24,067 nt of DNA from Myxococcales bacterium (GTDB lineage Bacteria; Myxococcota_A; Polyangia; Polyangiales; Polyangiaceae), in NCBI GenBank assembly GCA_043789255.1, contig JAYWIA010001507.1, positions 1-24,067 of the forward strand, in the 5' to 3' direction. Both the position numbers and the translations under genes were made by a program. Below, in pieces: positions 3,407 through 23,790 of the stretch. The notes below the pieces were generated by a model that saw only the letters and a list, made by a program, of their open reading frames with translations, did no database searches and had not been told where the DNA came from. Every line of letters begins with the position of its first letter. The first letter of the stretch is position 1.

Positions 3407-4120
3407 TCAGCTCTCTTCGGGCGGCTCGTCGGTGGCGGGAACGCGTTCGTCGCCGTCACTTTCGTCCGAGGAATTCTCGTCGGGCAGCGGACCAGGCGAG
3501 GATGTGGCAATCGAGGAGCGATGCAGCCGGTACGCCATACGCAAGATCAGCTCGCTCGCAGCTCCCCACGACAAGGAAGCTAAAGGGACGGTGCTACCGT
3601 CCTTCGCGACCCTTTCAATCCACGCGTCGACTTCTTCCTTCGACATGCTTGCGACGATGGGCCCCGTTTCCACTTGGACCTGGAGATAGGCCCGCATGAG
3701 GACGCCGACCTGGTCATTCGTGAGCCGCTTCCGCATTTCGGCGGGGCTTGGGAACGCCGGCCACTTCGGGCCGCTGTGCGTGTCCGATGGGTCTTCGACG
3801 CGACGGCATGAGCGATAGAGGATTTCGATCGTGTTCGCGTTGGCCTCGAGGTCTTCGTAGCTCGAAGCCTCGTCTTTCTTCGGAACACTGCCCTCTGACT
3901 TCCCGTCGGCGGTCTTGAACTTCAGGTAGGTATCGCGCACGTGTCGCTCACCAGCCGCGCGCGCAGCCATGAGTTCCTGGTGCGTGAGGACCTGCATGTG
4001 CACGTCCCCGACGGAATTCCCGTTCCCATCGAAGATGGGGAGCGGCACGATGCGGAACGGCCTCGGGAGCGCCGTGACGCGCTCCCAAAGGCTGTTTGTG
4101 GGTTGGGCGGTGTCGGACAT
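3407..4120 (-). CDS. Tail assembly chaperone (gpG-like, 237 aa)
   Basis: Canonical position between tube and tape measure; acidic low-complexity C-terminus; in-phase slippery heptamer C CCT TTA at 3587-3581. Confidence 0.75.
   Translation of the reverse strand: MSDTAQPTNSLWERVTALPRPFRIVPLPIFDGNGNSVGDVHMQVLTHQELMAARAAGERHVRDTYLKFKTADGKSEGSVPKKDEASSYEDLEANANTIEILYRSCRRVEDPSDTHSGPKWPAFPSPAEMRKRLTNDQVGVLMRAYLQVQVETGPIVASMSKEEVDAWIERVAKDGSTVPLASLSWGAASELILRMAYRLHRSSIATSSPGPLPDENSSDESDGDERVPATDEPPEES
3456..3587 (-). other. Predicted -1 programmed frameshift site and alternative 41-aa C-terminus (gpGT-like)
   Basis: X XXY YYZ heptamer CCCTTTA in the correct phase; the -1 frame is open for SFLVVGSCERADLAYGVPAASLLDCHILAWSAARREFLGRK then TGA at 3458-3456. 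Confidence 0.6.
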
Positions 4121-7199: not shown

Positions 7200-7610
7200 T
7201 CAGAAGCGGAAAGCGGACTGCTCGGCGAACGACTCGAAGGCCACTTCCGCAACGTCCATTGCCGGGCCCACGAATGGGTGCGGCCTCGTGCCGGGGTGGT
7301 GCACGCGCTTGGCGAAGACCATCGAACGTCCGACCTTGAAGGCCAGCGCGCGGGCCGAGTTCGCTTCGATGACGTGGGCAACCGTGCCCTCTTCGACGAA
7401 GACCGAAGCCTTGTGTGCGGATACGAGCGCGAACCCGTCCGTGATGCCCTCGGTCGTGAGAAGCTTCTTTATGCCGCCAGGGGCGCGGCGCTTGGCTTCG
7501 GCGAGGACGGCCTTCGCGGTCTTGTTGATGACCTGGCGCACCATGGCCGGAAAAGAGTTCGCGGCTTTGGCGTAGAACGCGGCAAGCTCGCGAGCTTCCA
7601 GAACCATCAT
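7200..7610 (-). CDS. HK97 gp10-like neck/tail-completion protein (136 aa)
   Basis: ATGA overlap with upstream stop; motifs ASVFVEEGT...HVI...ALAF...FAKRVHHPGTRPHPFVGPA match this family. Confidence 0.8.
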   Translation of the reverse strand: MMVLEARELAAFYAKAANSFPAMVRQVINKTAKAVLAEAKRRAPGGIKKLLTTEGITDGFALVSAHKASVFVEEGTVAHVIEANSARALAFKVGRSMVFAKRVHHPGTRPHPFVGPAMDVAEVAFESFAEQSAFRF

Positions 7611-8077: not shown

Positions 8078-8682
8078 CAGTAGACCTCGAGACTCGAGCC
8101 GCGACGACTGGCCATGAGGTTGGGACTCACGCGGACCAGCTCGGAGATTTGCTCCATGATCTTCGCGTACTGAAAAAGCACGTCATTGATGACGCCGCGC
8201 CCGCCGGCGAGCCATTCGATTTCACCCTGGCCGAGCTGCTTGAGGCCCGCGGTTTGGGTGATTGAAGATCCGAAGGCCTTGGAAAAGGCACGGTTGGCTT
8301 CGCCGAGCAGGAAGCGCAGGCGCGCCTTGCCGCTCATGACGAGGACGGGATACCCGAGAAGGTCGTGGGCCTTCGCAAAGCGCGCCACGAATGACCCACC
8401 GTTTACGGCTTTCACCTCAACGATTTCCGCGTCTTCGCCGATGTCCACCACGAGGGTTGCGGCCACCACGATGTTCGTCATGACGAGCGGGGTGCACGAG
8501 GCAATCCCGGCCGCGATTGGGGAAACGCTGGTGGTTTCGGTGTCCGTCGAGAGGTTCGGAGCGATGACCTGGTCGAAGAGCGAATAGAAGCCGTCGCTCG
8601 TGTAAGGCGAGGCCCCGACGCCGATGTTGCCGTGACGGAGGTGCGCGCGGAGATTCTCGATCTCGCTCTTGGTAAGGGACAT
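8077..8682 (-). CDS. Putative head-tail adaptor/connector (201 aa)
   Basis: ATG 8682 with SD GGAGG 9 nt upstream (preferred over GTG 8760); first neck gene after the head module. Assignment is by synteny. Confidence 0.55.
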   Translation of the reverse strand: MSLTKSEIENLRAHLRHGNIGVGASPYTSDGFYSLFDQVIAPNLSTDTETTSVSPIAAGIASCTPLVMTNIVVAATLVVDIGEDAEIVEVKAVNGGSFVARFAKAHDLLGYPVLVMSGKARLRFLLGEANRAFSKAFGSSITQTAGLKQLGQGEIEWLAGGRGVINDVLFQYAKIMEQISELVRVSPNLMASRRGSSLEVY

Positions 8683-8959: not shown

Positions 8960-9031
8960 TAGCAGGGGGTGGGATTGAACCACCGGCCTCTTGGTTATGA
9001 GCCAAGCGAGCTACCACTGCTCTACCCTGCT
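8960..9031 (-). tRNA. tRNA-Met(CAT), initiator-like; CCA not encoded
   Basis: Full cloverleaf: acceptor AGCAGGG/CCCTGCT + A73; D stem GAGC/GCTC; anticodon arm CTTGG-CTCATAA-CCAAG (CAT at 8999-8997); T arm GGTGG-TTCAATC-CCACC. Confidence 0.93.
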
Positions 9032-9120
9032 AGGTGCCGCCCGAGGGGGCGGGCGGCGAGGAGAGTTTTACGTGGTCCCCACCACGGCCCTTTGCTCGGA
9101 TGCGACGCCGAGCGGGCGAG

Positions 9121-18928: not shown

Positions 18929-19000
18929 ATGGGAGATTTCGTCAACGGCGAGCGGCTTTCGGGCGTGGATTGGGCGGAAATGAACGTGAGGCCGCGATGA
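18929..19000 (+). CDS. Candidate 23-aa leader ORF MGDFVNGERLSGVDWAEMNVRPR
   Basis: Strong SD AGGAGGGA (18913-18920); stop overlaps the next start (ATGA, 18997-19000). Confidence 0.55.
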   Translation: MGDFVNGERLSGVDWAEMNVRPR

Positions 19001-19992
19001 CGGACCAAACCCGAGAATGGCGCCGCAAGGTCGCAGCCGTCGGCCGTCACCTCCCCGCCGAAGACGAGCGCGCACTCGTCTTCCTGTTCAACGCGTTCGA
19101 AGGAGCCTGCGGGGTCCGGTCCGTCCAGGGGACGATCCAAGACATGCTGGTGTCCGGTACGGCTCGGCCCACGGGCGGAGCCACGGGGAATGGGCGCCTT
19201 GACCGGGCCGGGGAACCCGAGCTCCGGTTGCTCCCCGCCGAAGAGTGGGCTTCAGGGTCGGTCGAGCGCAGGGAGAACCTTCGGGCCGGCTCTACCCGTC
19301 GAGCCTACTTGGCCATGAAAGAGCTTTCCCGGTCGAGGGCTGGCCGCGGCCATGCGGTCGTGCTCTTCCGGTTCTTCGGCCCGCGCGACCCTTCGGCCCC
19401 TTGGGTGACCTTCGGGCCGGAGCTTGCGCCGATCGCGTGTCTCACGCGGGAGGCCTCTCGCCTCGCCTCGGACGCCGCGGACGAAGAGCACCGCGACCGG
19501 GCACGCGAGCGGCGGGCGAACGTCTTGGCCCTGCTCACCGGATGCGCCAAGGGAGGCACTTACCTCCCACGGCCTCCCACGGCCTTCGGTTCGGTTCCGT
19601 GCTCCCACGGTCGTGCGTCTGCTCGATCGCCGAGCGACGGACCACGGACGGCGCCGAGCGACGGACCAGTCGGGCTTGGTGTCGCGCTGGACGTGTCACC
19701 TCGAGGATTGAGCGACACGTCACCCGCGGCCGCGGACGACGGGGCCCTTTGCGACACGAGTACCGCGCGACCTCCAACGGTCGAAAGGGTCGCGACCATT
19801 GGCACCGTGGCCGCGCTCGCGCGGTCCACCCCGCGAGACGCAAAGCTCCACTTGCTCGCCTACATCGAAGGGCCAAAAAAAGGCGCCCCGGCCGACCGTG
19901 ACATTGTGCTCGCGCGCGTCCGCTCGGAGGCCGCCTTGCTCGTGTCCCAGGCGTGCGCCGCCTACGTACGGGCGCTCGAGGCTGTTTCGTGA
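18997..19992 (+). CDS. Hypothetical protein (331 aa), possibly regulatory
   Basis: MTDQTREW... ORF coupled at both ends (ATGA, GTGA); no recognised family. Confidence 0.65.
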   Translation: MTDQTREWRRKVAAVGRHLPAEDERALVFLFNAFEGACGVRSVQGTIQDMLVSGTARPTGGATGNGRLDRAGEPELRLLPAEEWASGSVERRENLRAGSTRRAYLAMKELSRSRAGRGHAVVLFRFFGPRDPSAPWVTFGPELAPIACLTREASRLASDAADEEHRDRARERRANVLALLTGCAKGGTYLPRPPTAFGSVPCSHGRASARSPSDGPRTAPSDGPVGLGVALDVSPRGLSDTSPAAADDGALCDTSTARPPTVERVATIGTVAALARSTPRDAKLHLLAYIEGPKKGAPADRDIVLARVRSEAALLVSQACAAYVRALEAVS

Positions 19993-20222
19993 GGGCGGAC
20001 GAGCTCCCTGTCGAGATGACCATTTCCGAGCTGGCTGTCGCGCTCGGTCTCCGCCGGCACGTCGTCCGTGACTACGTCCGGAATGGTCAGCTTCCCACCC
20101 GACGCCGCGGGCCGAAGAAGCGACGCATCGTGATCCCCTTGATCGAGCTTCGCGACGCCATGCCCTCCCTCTGGGAGGAGCTGGCTAGGCGCCTGCTCGA
20201 GCGCGAAGACGACGACTCGTAA
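19989..20222 (+). CDS. MerR/excisionase-type helix-turn-helix protein (77 aa)
   Basis: MTISELAVALGLRRHVVRDYVRNGQLPTRR winged-HTH pattern; GTGA overlap with upstream gene. Confidence 0.8.
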   Translation: MRADELPVEMTISELAVALGLRRHVVRDYVRNGQLPTRRRGPKKRRIVIPLIELRDAMPSLWEELARRLLEREDDDS

Positions 20223-20246
20223 CCCCCAACCCCGAAGGTCTCGCCC

Positions 20247-20582
20247 ATGTCCCGCAAGCTCGTTTCGTTCCTGGCCATGTTTTCCGCAATGATGGCTTCG
20301 CCCGCGCCTACGCCCCCCGCGAACGAACCCGGTTCGCCCATTGGAGACGTGGTATTTCGCCTTCGGAAAGGCCTCCCACGGGCCACGATCGGGATCTGGC
20401 GTGGCCATCCGAAGGGCGGCAACGTCCCGAACCGGCGAACCCCTACCACGTCCGCCGACCTTGCCGCGGTCGAGGCCGCCGAAGTGCGACGTGAGCGCCG
20501 AAGGGCCCGCTTCGCCGATCATTGGGACCGGCAACGCTTGGGCATGGCGCCAGCATGGGAATCCCCACCGGTCACGATCTAG
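20247..20582 (+). CDS. Hypothetical protein (111 aa)
   Basis: Continues the plus-strand operon up to a terminator; no motif recognised. Confidence 0.5.
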   Translation: MSRKLVSFLAMFSAMMASPAPTPPANEPGSPIGDVVFRLRKGLPRATIGIWRGHPKGGNVPNRRTPTTSADLAAVEAAEVRRERRRARFADHWDRQRLGMAPAWESPPVTI

Positions 20583-20600: not shown

Positions 20601-20620
20601 AACGCCTACAAAACGACGCA

Positions 20621-20655
20621 AGCGCCATGGTCCGAGACCATGGCGCTTTCGTTCA
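20621..20655 (+). terminator. Intrinsic terminator between convergent operons, possibly bidirectional
   Basis: Perfect 12-bp stem AGCGCCATGGTC-CGA-GACCATGGCGCT followed by TTCGTTCAGTT; A-rich tract on the other side. Confidence 0.7.
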
Positions 20656-21468: not shown

Positions 21469-21708
21469 CTATTCGGCGTCATGGGCGAGAAGATCTCGCC
21501 AGTTTTCGGGAAGCGGGCCGTGGACGAACCGCTCCATTTCCTCATGGTTTCCGCACCGTCCGGACCGGACACGATGGGGGAAGTGGTAGGCGCCGCATCG
21601 GCAGATCGCCCCCACTTCACGCCTACGCCATCGGCATCGGGGGCGCCCCGGGCGGCACCCCATCGCGTGCGCCGTGTGTCCGTAGCAAACGAGCGGGGCG
21701 ACCTTCAC
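21469..21708 (-). CDS. Small Cys/His-rich protein (79 aa)
   Basis: GTGA overlap with upstream stop; its TAG forms part of the next SD; MKVAPLVCYGH...ICRCGAYHFPHRVRSGRCGNH. Confidence 0.7.
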   Translation of the reverse strand: MKVAPLVCYGHTAHAMGCRPGRPRCRWRRREVGAICRCGAYHFPHRVRSGRCGNHEEMERFVHGPLPENWRDLLAHDAE

Positions 21709-22100
21709 GCTTCGACCCGGCACGGAATGTTCATTCGCACGGCAAGGCGCTTTAGGAAGCGCGTGGCATAGTCCTGCGCTTCGCTGGGCGCGTAGCGTGT
21801 GCCGTCCGCTTGATTGGCCTCGCGTGTGTACGTGTCCGAGGGCCAAACGGTAGTGAACCGTGCGCCGGTTGCGGTGCACACGTTGCGCACGCGCCATGCC
21901 GCACCACGTGCGCCCGGACGAAGCGCGACCATCGAACCGCTCGCGTCGTGCCAAAACCGAAGCGACCCGTCACGGTCTTTTTCGATGCGAACGCCGACCG
22001 TTTCGGCCCGAAAGTGACCTGGGCAATTCTCGGTAGCAGTGAACGAAAGAGCGTTCACAACGCGGTCAACGATAGAGGCCTCAATCGCGGTCTTGGACAT
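21705..22100 (-). CDS. Hypothetical protein (131 aa)
   Basis: First gene after promoter cassette copy 1; SD GGAAGGA. Confidence 0.75.
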   Translation of the reverse strand: MSKTAIEASIVDRVVNALSFTATENCPGHFRAETVGVRIEKDRDGSLRFWHDASGSMVALRPGARGAAWRVRNVCTATGARFTTVWPSDTYTREANQADGTRYAPSEAQDYATRFLKRLAVRMNIPCRVEA

Positions 22101-22119
22101 GGCGGAATCCTTCCGTTTC

Positions 22120-22201
22120 GGGGCGCGTCGTGCGCCCCGTGTGACTTAGTTATGCGCCCTAATGCCTATCTGGTCAAAGTCTTTTTATGCGTGACCCGAT
22201 A
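22120..22201 (-). promoter_or_regulatory. Repeated promoter/stem-loop cassette, copy 1
   Basis: A-tract, -35 TTGACC (22177-22172), 17 bp, -10 CATAAC (22154-22149), then hairpin GGGGCGC-ACGAC-GCGCCCC (22138-22120). Confidence 0.8.
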
Positions 22202-22220
22202 GATTCTTTCCGAGGCCTGG

Positions 22221-22242
22221 AAAGGCGCCCTTCGGCGCCCTT
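22221..22242 (-). terminator. Probable terminator after the DUF932 gene
   Basis: AAGGGCGCC-GAAG-GGCGCCTTT on the minus strand, 12 nt after the stop. Confidence 0.6.
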
Positions 22243-22253
22243 CCGACTTCCGC

Positions 22254-23258
22254 CTAGGCCGTTGCGAGGTCTACAGCGCGCCCCAACGCTCGCGTCGAAG
22301 TCGCAGCGGCCGAACCGCCAAGGGCGAGACTTTCAAGGCGGGATTCCGCCGTTCCTCCGCGCGGGCGGTCGTTCCCTAGGTATTCGGTTACCGCGTTGTA
22401 TGCGGCCCACCACGTACCGCGGACACCGGGCGCGGCATTGCCCTTTCCGCCGACGAAAAGCGCTTCTACACGCTCCGAGCGCTCGCGGGCGTAGCTTTCG
22501 GAGCGGGACTCTTTGGCCTCGCCCGCCGCCCGCTTTGCGAACGAAAGCAGGTCTTCTTTCGGCGGGGGCGCCTCGAACACATGAGCGACGTATTTCGCGA
22601 GGTCGCTCGGGTTCACCTGTCGGGCGGCAAGAGCCCGGTATTGTTCCGCCGTGGCCTCGAAACGCGCATGGGCGACGGCCATGGTGTTGCGCACCGCGTC
22701 GAGCGTGGATTTCATCCCGGCCGTGTGTCGGACACGTAGGAGGGCGCTTCCCGTGTCCCCGTGGGCGATCGCAAGGGTGTTCGCGCACACCACTCTCGTG
22801 GGGGTGTACCCCACGCGAACCGCCTTCGTTCCGTCGTGAGAATTGCTCAAAAGAACGTATTTTTCCACGACGTCATCCGCCTTCGGAACGATCACGAGGG
22901 GATCGCCGATGCGTGCGAGCACCCAAACGACGCAACCTCCTCGCAGGGATCCGGCCGTTTCAAGCGTCGCTTCGCCCGATTCGAGAATCGGATCGAACCA
23001 CGAGAACGCTTCCGCGTTCTGCAAAAGCGTGTAGTCGGGGCCCACCGTCCCCAGAATGGCGCGGTCCGTTGCGCGGACGTTCGCGAAGCGTTCTACGGTC
23101 CGCCCATCGGCGAGAAAGAGCGGTTCGCGAGCGACCTCCCACGCAAGGCCCGCATCGTGGATCGCCTCGGCCGAGGTCGGCGGATTGTCGAGGATCGCCC
23201 CGAGTTTGTGCCAGGGGGTCTCTCGGACGGAAAACATGCTTTCGACTTCGTGCGCCAT
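22254..23258 (-). CDS. DUF932/DUF945 family phage/plasmid protein (TIGR03299-like, 334 aa)
   Basis: MAHEVESMFSVRETPWHKLG, ETAGSLRGG, LLSNSHDGT, TPTRVVCANTL, GTWWAAYNAVTEY signatures. Confidence 0.92.
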   Translation of the reverse strand: MAHEVESMFSVRETPWHKLGAILDNPPTSAEAIHDAGLAWEVAREPLFLADGRTVERFANVRATDRAILGTVGPDYTLLQNAEAFSWFDPILESGEATLETAGSLRGGCVVWVLARIGDPLVIVPKADDVVEKYVLLSNSHDGTKAVRVGYTPTRVVCANTLAIAHGDTGSALLRVRHTAGMKSTLDAVRNTMAVAHARFEATAEQYRALAARQVNPSDLAKYVAHVFEAPPPKEDLLSFAKRAAGEAKESRSESYARERSERVEALFVGGKGNAAPGVRGTWWAAYNAVTEYLGNDRPRGGTAESRLESLALGGSAAATSTRALGRAVDLATA

Positions 23259-23280
23259 GATGGGAGGCCTTTCGTTTTGC

Positions 23281-23365
23281 GGGGCGCGTCGTGCGCCCCG
23301 TTCAGTCCTGTTGTTATGCGCCCTAACGTCGATCGGGTCAATGTCTTTTTATGCGTGACCCGATA
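23281..23365 (-). promoter_or_regulatory. Repeated promoter/stem-loop cassette, copy 2
   Basis: -35 TTGACC (23341-23336), 17 bp, -10 CATAAC (23318-23313), identical hairpin at 23299-23281; 29/30 identity to copy 1 over the upstream block. Confidence 0.8.
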
Positions 23366-23406
23366 ATCAAGGGTCACATGTAGGTGAGCATGCCGGACGC
23401 CTTGCC

Positions 23407-23790
23407 CTAGTCGATCGGGAGGGCCACCGCGACCGTGCAGCCCTTGCGGGTGACCTCGAACACGGCAACGGTGGCGCGCCAAAGTGGCCGATGGTCCGAG
23501 CCGTGGGCGCGGTGCCGTGAAAGCGTTTTCAGGGTGCCGTCCCAGGTCACCCGGGTTTCTCCCGGGTACACCACGAGCGCGAGCTCCGCGACGTCAGCCA
23601 CTACCGCCAGCGCCTCGGCATGAAGCACTTCCGCGGCTTCGATCTTCTCGACGTGAGGGTCGCGTCGAATCACCAGGCCGAACGCGTCACGGCCGCCTTC
23701 TTCGAGGACCATACCGCCGGGCACAAGGGCCGCCACAAGGTGGGCCACCGTCCGAAGCGCAGCCTCCGCGTTCGCATGGTGCGCCGTCAC
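23407..23790 (-). CDS. Hypothetical protein (127 aa)
   Basis: GTGA overlap with the ASCH gene stop. Confidence 0.65.
   Translation of the reverse strand: MTAHHANAEAALRTVAHLVAALVPGGMVLEEGGRDAFGLVIRRDPHVEKIEAAEVLHAEALAVVADVAELALVVYPGETRVTWDGTLKTLSRHRAHGSDHRPLWRATVAVFEVTRKGCTVAVALPID

Follow-up and report, generated by a model that had tools for sequence, protein, structure and literature searches.

Reiterated promoter-like and leader-hairpin cassettes with a promoter-early-stem-loop-like layout among the early genes of an uncultivated sheath-tailed phage

We analysed a stretch of 24,067 bp, here called the window, which is the entire contig C1507 within the fragmented 7.8-Mb metagenome-assembled genome of a Myxococcales bacterium (Polyangiaceae), with respect to a repeated cassette that brackets a DUF932 gene. 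The window is phage DNA, with PHROG profile matches to a tail sheath, a major head protein, a portal, the large and small terminase subunits, a ParB-like and a PAPS-reductase-like protein, and the phage is uncultivated, sheath-tailed and not T4-like, belonging to a lineage without a cultured member. Its early and structural genes lie on the minus strand, with one three-gene module being oppositely oriented. Small genes are clustered upstream of the packaging genes, and it is in this cluster that the cassettes are found; here the order on the minus strand is a gene for a protein of 113 amino acids (aa), cassette C, DUF932, a stem-loop, cassette D and a 131-aa gene. The 131-aa protein finds as its sole database match the phage's own sequence, including a 30,461-bp contig of the European Nucleotide Archive (locus L118), which over 12.4 kb shares 99.99% identity with the window and reaches 3.7 kb further upstream; window positions equal 27816 minus the L118 coordinate.

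The window's own assembly contains just two copies of the cassette, with a repeat core (22149-22201 versus 23313-23365) being 91% identical over 53 nt, which a gapped alignment widens to approximately 22101-22201 and 23259-23385 (about 100 and 127 nt), and the contig stops 700 bp past copy C. L118 carries four copies, all in a single orientation and each ending at a start codon; C and D correspond to copies 2 and 1 of a first-pass annotation of the window.

Cassette A: L118 259-387; full copy
Cassette B: L118 1583-1709; full copy
Cassette C: window 23259..23385 (L118 4431-4557), minus strand; starts just past the upstream gene's stop and ends at the last base before the DUF932 start codon
Cassette D: window 22101..22201 (L118 5615-5718), minus strand; same core and hairpin as the other copies
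Promoter-like motif of cassette C: TTGACC 23336-23341, 17-nt spacer, CATAAC 23313-23318, minus strand; common to all four copies
Promoter-like motif of cassette D: TTGACC 22172-22177, 17-nt spacer, CATAAC 22149-22154, minus strand
Leader hairpin of cassette C: 23280..23300 (19-nt identical part 23281-23299), minus strand; 21 nt separate its end from the DUF932 start codon
Leader hairpin of cassette D: 22119..22139 (19-nt identical part 22120-22138), minus strand; 18 nt separate its end from the start codon at 22100

On the minus strand each cassette is composed of TATCGGGTCAC, an A-rich tract, TTGACC, a 17-nt spacer, CATAAC, 9-12 variable bases, the hairpin, a leader with a Shine-Dalgarno (SD) sequence and ATG. 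On L118, a 118-nt block of cassette C is 97% identical to A and 90% to B, and cassette D differs in its 5' extension, in the spacer between -35 and -10 and in the segment preceding the hairpin. A 19-mer of the block is matched four times in L118 versus 0.01 expected from shuffled sequences, and the 19-nt hairpin four times versus 0.05. The copies are spread over 5.4 kb, and the four cassettes together with one leader-only site lie within approximately 5.7 kb of small genes, the early proteins encoded there showing almost no family matches; none of the cassette units except that of DUF932, between C and D, consists of a single gene. In Logan contigs of a source-like sample the collapsed repeat unitig has a depth of 26.6 versus 10.7 for the phage, as would be expected for three A/B/C-type copies in addition to D, and speaks against numerous further copies at other places. 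As the phage genome is incomplete, the number of at least four copies is a lower bound. The first-pass annotation had described two repeats with an identical 19-nt hairpin, TTGACC-N17-CATAAC in both (22149-22177 and 23313-23341) and DUF932 between them, and every one of these elements is present; it had reckoned with these being the only two copies as an argument against its interpretation, and L118 carries at least four.

Compared to the sigma-70 consensus, TTGACC matches five of six and CATAAC four of six positions, the terminal T being absent from the latter. The last eight bases of the spacer (TTAGGGCG) are invariant in all four copies, and so is an A-rich tract, ATAAAAAGA, at -46..-38, in a phage of 64% G+C; the tract presumably corresponds to a proximal upstream (UP) element, matching eight of nine positions of the E. 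coli consensus, AAAAAARNR. Genome-wide hexamer counts after TTGAC are too low to inform on the -10 element of the host, and we used the regions upstream of tRNA genes instead. Within 120 nt upstream of 58 tRNA genes of the presumed host, TTGAC occurs 14 times versus three expected, mostly about 25-75 nt before the tRNA, and is followed after 16-18 nt by loose hexamers (TATGAA, TAATTC, CTAAAC, AATAAC, TATGGT), several of them without the terminal T. Such boxes are seen, for example, on the host contigs C178, C494 and C1258. The host example closest to the cassette motif is that of a tRNA-Pro gene, TTGACG-N17-AATAAC, and TTGACC-N17-CATAAC as a sequence fits the host tRNA promoter pattern. Further information comes from X2, a related strain from another (aquatic) metagenome, represented by a 345-nt contig covering 23230-23574. 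Cassette D and X2 both retain the A-tract, the two hexamers at a distance of 17 nt and the hairpin, and the changes sit in the spacer and just upstream of the -35, a pattern of variation that points to a promoter. An alternative promoter inside the A-tract was rejected, with no -35 at a usable distance and copy D lacking the upstream part.

The cassettes are mosaic. Over the promoter half, A, B and C agree at 51-52 of 53 positions and have identical flanks, and D agrees with them at 46-48 of 53 and has unrelated flanks; the leader half pairs B with D (20 of 21 positions) and, over its first 12 nt, A with C, the invariant hairpin sitting at the point at which the mosaic switches. As the two halves group differently, the cassette is a discrete unit with sharp ends, the halves of which have been exchanged between sites, and past exchange between the copies is evident, if by indirect support. 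We found no similarity among the proteins encoded downstream of the cassettes; an origin of the likeness by gene duplication was rejected because these genes show no paralogy. The copies share identical stretches of 20-50 nt in direct orientation, and C and D, 1164 bp apart, have perfect stretches of 22-23 nt in common.

The leader hairpin consists of an 8-bp GC stem closed by the pentaloop ACGAC (-17.3 kcal/mol), is identical in the four copies, and ends 18, 18, 20 and 21 nt before the start codon. Its stem begins 9-12 nt after the -10 hexamer and the hairpin is hence predicted to lie inside the transcript. A fifth site (L118 2348-2364) has no promoter block and carries the ACGAC loop on another stem (GCGAGC/GCTCGC); the distance to a start codon is again 18 nt, and the leader resembles those of B and D. 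In total, six ACGAC-loop hairpins with a stem of at least 6 bp are present in the 30.4-kb contig versus 0.19 in shuffled sequences. Relatives reached via the large terminase (TerL), which is 53-55% identical and encoded in a syntenic context, have their own hairpins directly before the SD sequence of early genes. Samples with TerL relatives of 71% and 55-56% identity are also on record. In locus L147 a 10-bp stem occurs three times, its loops being variable, and the loci L148 and L160 (TerL 53%) have five hairpins, often in tandem, in which a constant GCUGA loop (GCAGA in one) sits on five different stems, 0.37 being expected in shuffled sequences.

GCUGA hairpins: L148 527-567, 1694-1735 and 3967-3987; L160 approximately 9030-9075; before the SD sequences of early genes

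These GCUGA loops are G...A pentaloops which could fold GNRA-like as in boxB. Taken together, the fifth site, the excess of ACGAC hairpins and the hairpins preceding SD sequences in the relatives suggest an RNA function tied to translation starts. Other GC hairpins directly before an SD sequence are found at L118 3641-3662 (equivalent to 24154-24175, past the end of the window) and 2290-2310, one of them, with the loop GAAGAT, preceding the ASCH gene; a hairpin before the SD sequence is therefore general in the early region of this phage. An ACGAC hairpin with a near-identical stem is also located at 1000-1016 on the plus strand in the tail region, about 90 nt past the stop of the plus-strand gene 353-910 and with no start codon adjacent. 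The cassette hairpin has no U-tract and is for this reason not a canonical terminator, unlike the true terminator of the operon.

Canonical intrinsic terminator: 20611..20648 (L118 7168-7196 plus tail), minus strand; 13-bp stem and T-run; between convergent genes, closing the early operon

An Rfam search returned nothing above threshold, with sroE as top match at 22.9 bits versus a cutoff of 51. N4-type hairpin promoters, an RNase III site and replication iterons were considered and rejected, the loop having 5 nt and not 3, the stem only 8 bp and the copies being dispersed.

Two inverted repeats overlap the promoter-like motif or lie just upstream of it.

Dyad ATCGGGTCA-N15-TGACCCGAT: 23332..23364, minus strand; 9-nt arms, perfect in cassette C; right arm overlaps the -35; centre at about -42, with the AT-rich ATAAAAAGA in the middle (-46..-38)
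Inverted repeat GTGACCC-N9-GGGTCAC: 23355..23377, minus strand; centred about -60 from the predicted start; in A (one mismatch), B and C, absent in D

The shorter form of the dyad, GGTCA-N15-TGACC, is found at 22172-22196 and 23336-23360, two occurrences versus 0.03 expected from shuffled sequences. The first-pass annotation had noted its overlap with the -35 in both copies as well as the extra inverted repeat of copy C at 23355-23377, and in both points agrees with what we find. Cassettes A to C begin directly after the upstream stop codon and share a 20-nt extension, in which GTGACYC pairs with GGGTCAC nine bases on. The left arm of the dyad is identical in the four copies, as is all the surrounding sequence. 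In X2, seven of the eight differences to cassette C fall within 23329-23357 (29 nt) and one within the surrounding 316 nt; this patch looks like a converted patch or a relaxed spacer. Both arms of the dyad are altered there, GGGTCA to GGGTGA and TGACCCGAT to TGACCGAAT, bringing the palindrome down to 6 of 9 positions. The proposal of the first-pass annotation that the dyad is a shared repressor site thus meets with a strain in which both arms have changed while -35, -10, A-tract and hairpin stay. The dyad may be the site of a regulator, an assignment to which conservation gives no support, and its centre at about -42 would be equally suitable for a repressor and for an activator of the class II type. 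Among the neighbouring genes, just one encodes a recognisable DNA binder, namely a 77-aa HTH_17/MerR-like protein (19989-20222) in the opposite-strand module. This module (18997-20582, plus strand) runs against the general direction of the phage and comprises genes for 331 aa, the 77-aa protein and 111 aa. Homologues of its first two genes are co-directional with the terminase in L147/L161 and L148/L160 and inverted here as well as in L145, and this difference in orientation among relatives implies that the three-gene module has been inverted in part of the lineage.

The genes around cassettes C and D and the stem-loop at the end of DUF932 are the following.

113-aa gene: 23407-23748, minus strand; gene call on L118 4068-4409; no family match; ends 21 nt before cassette C
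DUF932 gene, 334 aa: 22254..23258, minus strand; Pfam PF06067 E=2.6e-51, phrog_1221 E=2.9e-66; sole gene between C and D
Stem-loop over the DUF932 stop codon (22254-22256): 22214..22260, minus strand; main 11-bp GC-rich stem 22219-22244; no U-tract
131-aa gene downstream of cassette D: 21705-22100, minus strand; open reading frame without Pfam or PHROG match

The Pfam match at E=2.6e-51 bears out the assignment of DUF932 between the copies. The 3' stem-loop is stable (-32.7 kcal/mol, z = -2.5) and is not called as a terminator; the statement of the first-pass annotation that DUF932 has its own terminator finds no support, since the stem-loop is without a U-tract, unlike the real terminator of the operon. 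In the relative L161, a DUF932 protein of 49% identity is encoded between direct repeats of about 60 nt (7422-7480 and 8538-8598), each comprising a perfect 16-bp palindrome, TTGCGACTAGTCGCAA, and a 12-bp GC hairpin in which the two copies differ in a compensatory manner; these are the only two copies within 11 kb. DUF932 of L161 lies upstream of the homologues of the 165-aa gene and of ASCH, and in the present phage downstream of them. The location of DUF932 elsewhere in L161, between direct repeats, fits an exchange at such cassettes. In a third relative, DUF932 was not found in the 31 kb examined. We further compared 77 IMG/VR phage loci encoding DUF932 together with L118 and L161, 33 of which were informative (best repeat scoring 28 bits or more). 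In 13 of these 33, the best repeat of the upstream region lies no more than 300 nt past the DUF932 stop, compared to about 5% expected if its position were uniform, a result that is only suggestive because the IMG/VR loci are mutually related and not independent and intergenic regions share signals. Identity between the present phage and L161 is 49% for DUF932 and 55% for TerL, and this similar divergence is compatible with vertical inheritance plus rearrangement. Beside these repeats, a further relative (L163, TerL 51%, an NCBI assembly) has a sigma-70-like gene with regions 2 and 4 flanked by 24-nt direct repeats (2821-2844 and 3671-3694), which start at stop codons; no such sigma-like gene was seen in the known 30.4 kb of the present phage.

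We propose, with a probability of roughly 70%, that the repeats are reiterated early promoter and messenger-leader cassettes with the layout of the promoter-early-stem-loops (PeSLs), here in a phage that is not T4-like. Each cassette would provide a UP-like tract and a host-type sigma-70 promoter with a start 3-6 nt before the hairpin, followed by the SD sequence and the start codon, and the at least four cassettes A to D would divide approximately 5.7 kb of small genes into units each under its own promoter. An action of the hairpin on the level of RNA is most likely, roles as a 5' stabiliser or as a site for a trans-acting factor such as a phage RNA-binding regulator both fitting the data, and it is unlikely to be a terminator. 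The dyad near -42 may be the target of a repressor or an activator encoded by the phage. The shared direct stretches would in principle let units be gained, lost or moved, as has been proposed for PeSLs. With this, the suggestion of the first-pass annotation of a PeSL-like system in an unrelated phage group is retained, extended by the composite nature of the cassettes, the at least four copies, their mosaicism and the DUF932 gene located elsewhere in a relative; excision and the repressor site, which were part of it, are not carried over.

Several points weigh against this proposal. A scan for E. coli-type promoters calls none of the four copies, as their -10 hexamer has C in place of the terminal T; promoter activity and transcription start are predictions from sequence. 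The assignment of the phage to its host is based solely on binning and on the similar G+C content (64.2% for the phage versus 65.6% for the host bin). The identity of A to C could come from a recent duplication and not from function, and the contigs of four runs include none in which C and D have recombined. Nor did the searches bring up a relative that has this cassette sequence. Scans with 17- or 19-mers of the promoter block against IMG/VR, JGI metagenome contigs and GTDB genome contigs gave single matches in unrelated organisms in which the rest of the cassette is absent, the hairpin 19-mer had 11 single matches in IMG/VR, judged to be due to chance, and the -35..-10 pattern had zero matches in IMG/VR. 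Similarly, blastn of the cassette region against GenBank phages gave no match, a DNA search of 60 related host genomes gave weak matches only, to coding parts, a TerL search in 200 genomes of the host family returned relatives at no more than 43% identity, and a homologue search for the two flanking small proteins yielded nothing beyond the phage's own sequences.

Other explanations account for part of these observations. The arrangement could be a mobile module in the strict sense of a PeSL, in which recombination between the cassettes at present excises DUF932 as a circle of approximately 1.16 kb that re-inserts at any cassette, making the gene plug-in cargo. The direct repeats C and D, 1164 bp apart with their perfect 22-23-nt stretches, the mosaicism of the cassettes, the relocation of DUF932 in L161 relative to the 165-aa-homologue and ASCH anchors between repeats unique to that site, its absence from the 31 kb of the third relative and the 13 of 33 informative IMG/VR loci with flanking repeats, related as these loci are, all favour it. 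However, the excision proposed in the first-pass annotation finds no counterpart in the assembler contigs of four runs, in which no deletion or circle junction of C and D occurs, an argument which is weak as contigs drop rare forms. X2, the only close strain, keeps the junction of upstream gene, cassette C and DUF932, the 49% identity of DUF932 in the two relatives is near that of the backbone TerL (55%), as would fit vertical descent, and promoter repeats will flank any gene when every unit owns a copy. We hold present-day excision, which is a proposal only, to be unlikely. Slightly less doubtful, though still improbable in our view, is that the hairpin is the main element, being recognised by a phage RNA-binding protein (an antiterminator in the manner of N and boxB, a translational repressor or a processing nuclease), and that the promoter block is secondary. 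The ACGAC loop on a different stem at the promoterless site with the same 18-nt distance to the start codon, the five constant GCUGA loops on five stems in a relative, often in tandem, the lineage specificity of the loops and the ACGAC hairpin outside the leaders at 1000-1016 support this possibility, whereas no candidate RNA-binding protein is seen among the early proteins, most of which are without family, four of the five stems are identical so that covariation depends on one extra site, and ACGAC is not a G...A loop of the boxB type, with neither a boxA-like element recognised nor an Rfam match.

On the same evidence one might speculate, with as little confidence as we grant to excision, that each lineage has leader hairpins of its own for recognition by a protein, constant in the loop (ACGAC here, GCUGA in one relative, other loops in another) and free to vary in the stem, through which one phage RNA-binding regulator would control all early units post-transcriptionally by antitermination, translational control or processing, with loop and regulator co-evolving; separately from this, the DUF932 unit may move between phages through recombination at the cassettes. 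That the hairpin is a terminator or attenuator insulating the units as in classical PeSLs, with the DUF932 stem-loop as a true terminator and DUF932 as an insulated moron, seems quite improbable. Both hairpins are very stable intergenic GC stems, and PeSL stem-loops terminate transcription in E. coli (PMC2839356), but neither has a U-tract compared to the 13-bp stem and T-run of the operon's terminator, and the cassette hairpin, lying downstream of its own predicted start, would stop its own transcripts. That the repeats lack a regulatory role and merely reflect recent segmental duplication or assembly, as a neutral by-product, is in our view hardly credible. The identity of 97-99% between A, B and C, spacers included, and the breaking of assemblies at the repeat, with contig L119 beginning inside the hairpin, would agree with such an origin; against it, the arrangement recurs in three independent assemblies or samples, the variation in D and X2 is confined to spacers, and relatives carry analogous elements at orthologous genes.

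A cassette of this kind is already known from T4-type phages, and the background of phage and host is very different here. PeSLs are known in the T4-type phages RB49/phi1, T4/PST and KVP40/nt-1 (PMC2839356; PMC4122927), with crossovers mapped in or beside the stem-loop (PMC2839356). In common with them, the cassettes of the present phage have hexamers that resemble those of host sigma-70 promoters, preceded by an AT-rich tract and accompanied by a stable stem-loop rich in GC and by an SD sequence, and likewise occur as many copies in one orientation among small unknown genes, the copies looking recombined. Unlike in those phages, the genome here is GC-rich with a contig of more than 30 kb, an SPP1-like portal and a TerL of the Terminase_3C type, there are only four to five copies, the -10 is weak by E. 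coli standards and a dyad surrounds -42. Moreover, the stem-loop differs from most PeSLs in lying within the predicted transcribed leader, 18-21 nt from the start codon and without a U-tract. Indels between close relatives and mini-circles, which belong to the PeSL picture, have no counterpart here in the junction covered by X2 and in the contigs of four runs. The start-associated sequences (SAS) of Cluster K mycobacteriophages are a 13-bp motif, GGGATAGGAGCCC, located 3-8 bp upstream of start codons in 11-19 copies; about half of them are preceded by inverted repeats with 17-bp arms and a variable spacer (extended SAS, ESAS), and their role is thought to be translational (PMC3203893). As in SAS/ESAS, repeats are found here at the starts of a subset of non-structural genes in one orientation, in parallel to the leader module of hairpin, SD and ATG, which here is also found without the promoter, but the sequences are unrelated, GGGATAGGAGCCC is absent here and the SAS unit includes no promoter. 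In temperate phages of GC-rich hosts, as with the early promoters of phiC31 and their conserved inverted repeats and the stoperators of L5, numerous early genes are each preceded by a copy of one promoter or operator sequence and served by one regulator; in contrast, no repressor is identified here, the half-sites are N15 apart and the dyad is not kept in X2. The lambdoid nut site combines boxA with the boxB hairpin, the G...A (GNRA-like) pentaloop of which is bound by N, and differs from the leaders studied here, which have the loop ACGAC and on reading of the preceding sequence no boxA-like element.

As a summary, our data suggest that the PeSL-type layout is not confined to T4-like coliphages and is found in a GC-rich environmental phage lineage, in which one unit of promoter, hairpin and SD sequence would be reused before many small early genes and the copies have recombined. 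The -35/-10 pair, the UP-like tract, the candidate regulator dyad at -42 and the leader hairpin at a fixed distance provide testable parts for a host group with uncharacterised promoters, and the TTGAC boxes of the host with their degenerate -10 elements represent a usable first promoter sketch for this uncultured lineage. The recurrence of single-gene DUF932 units between direct repeats hints at the widespread, uncharacterised DUF932 travelling or being regulated as an autonomous module.

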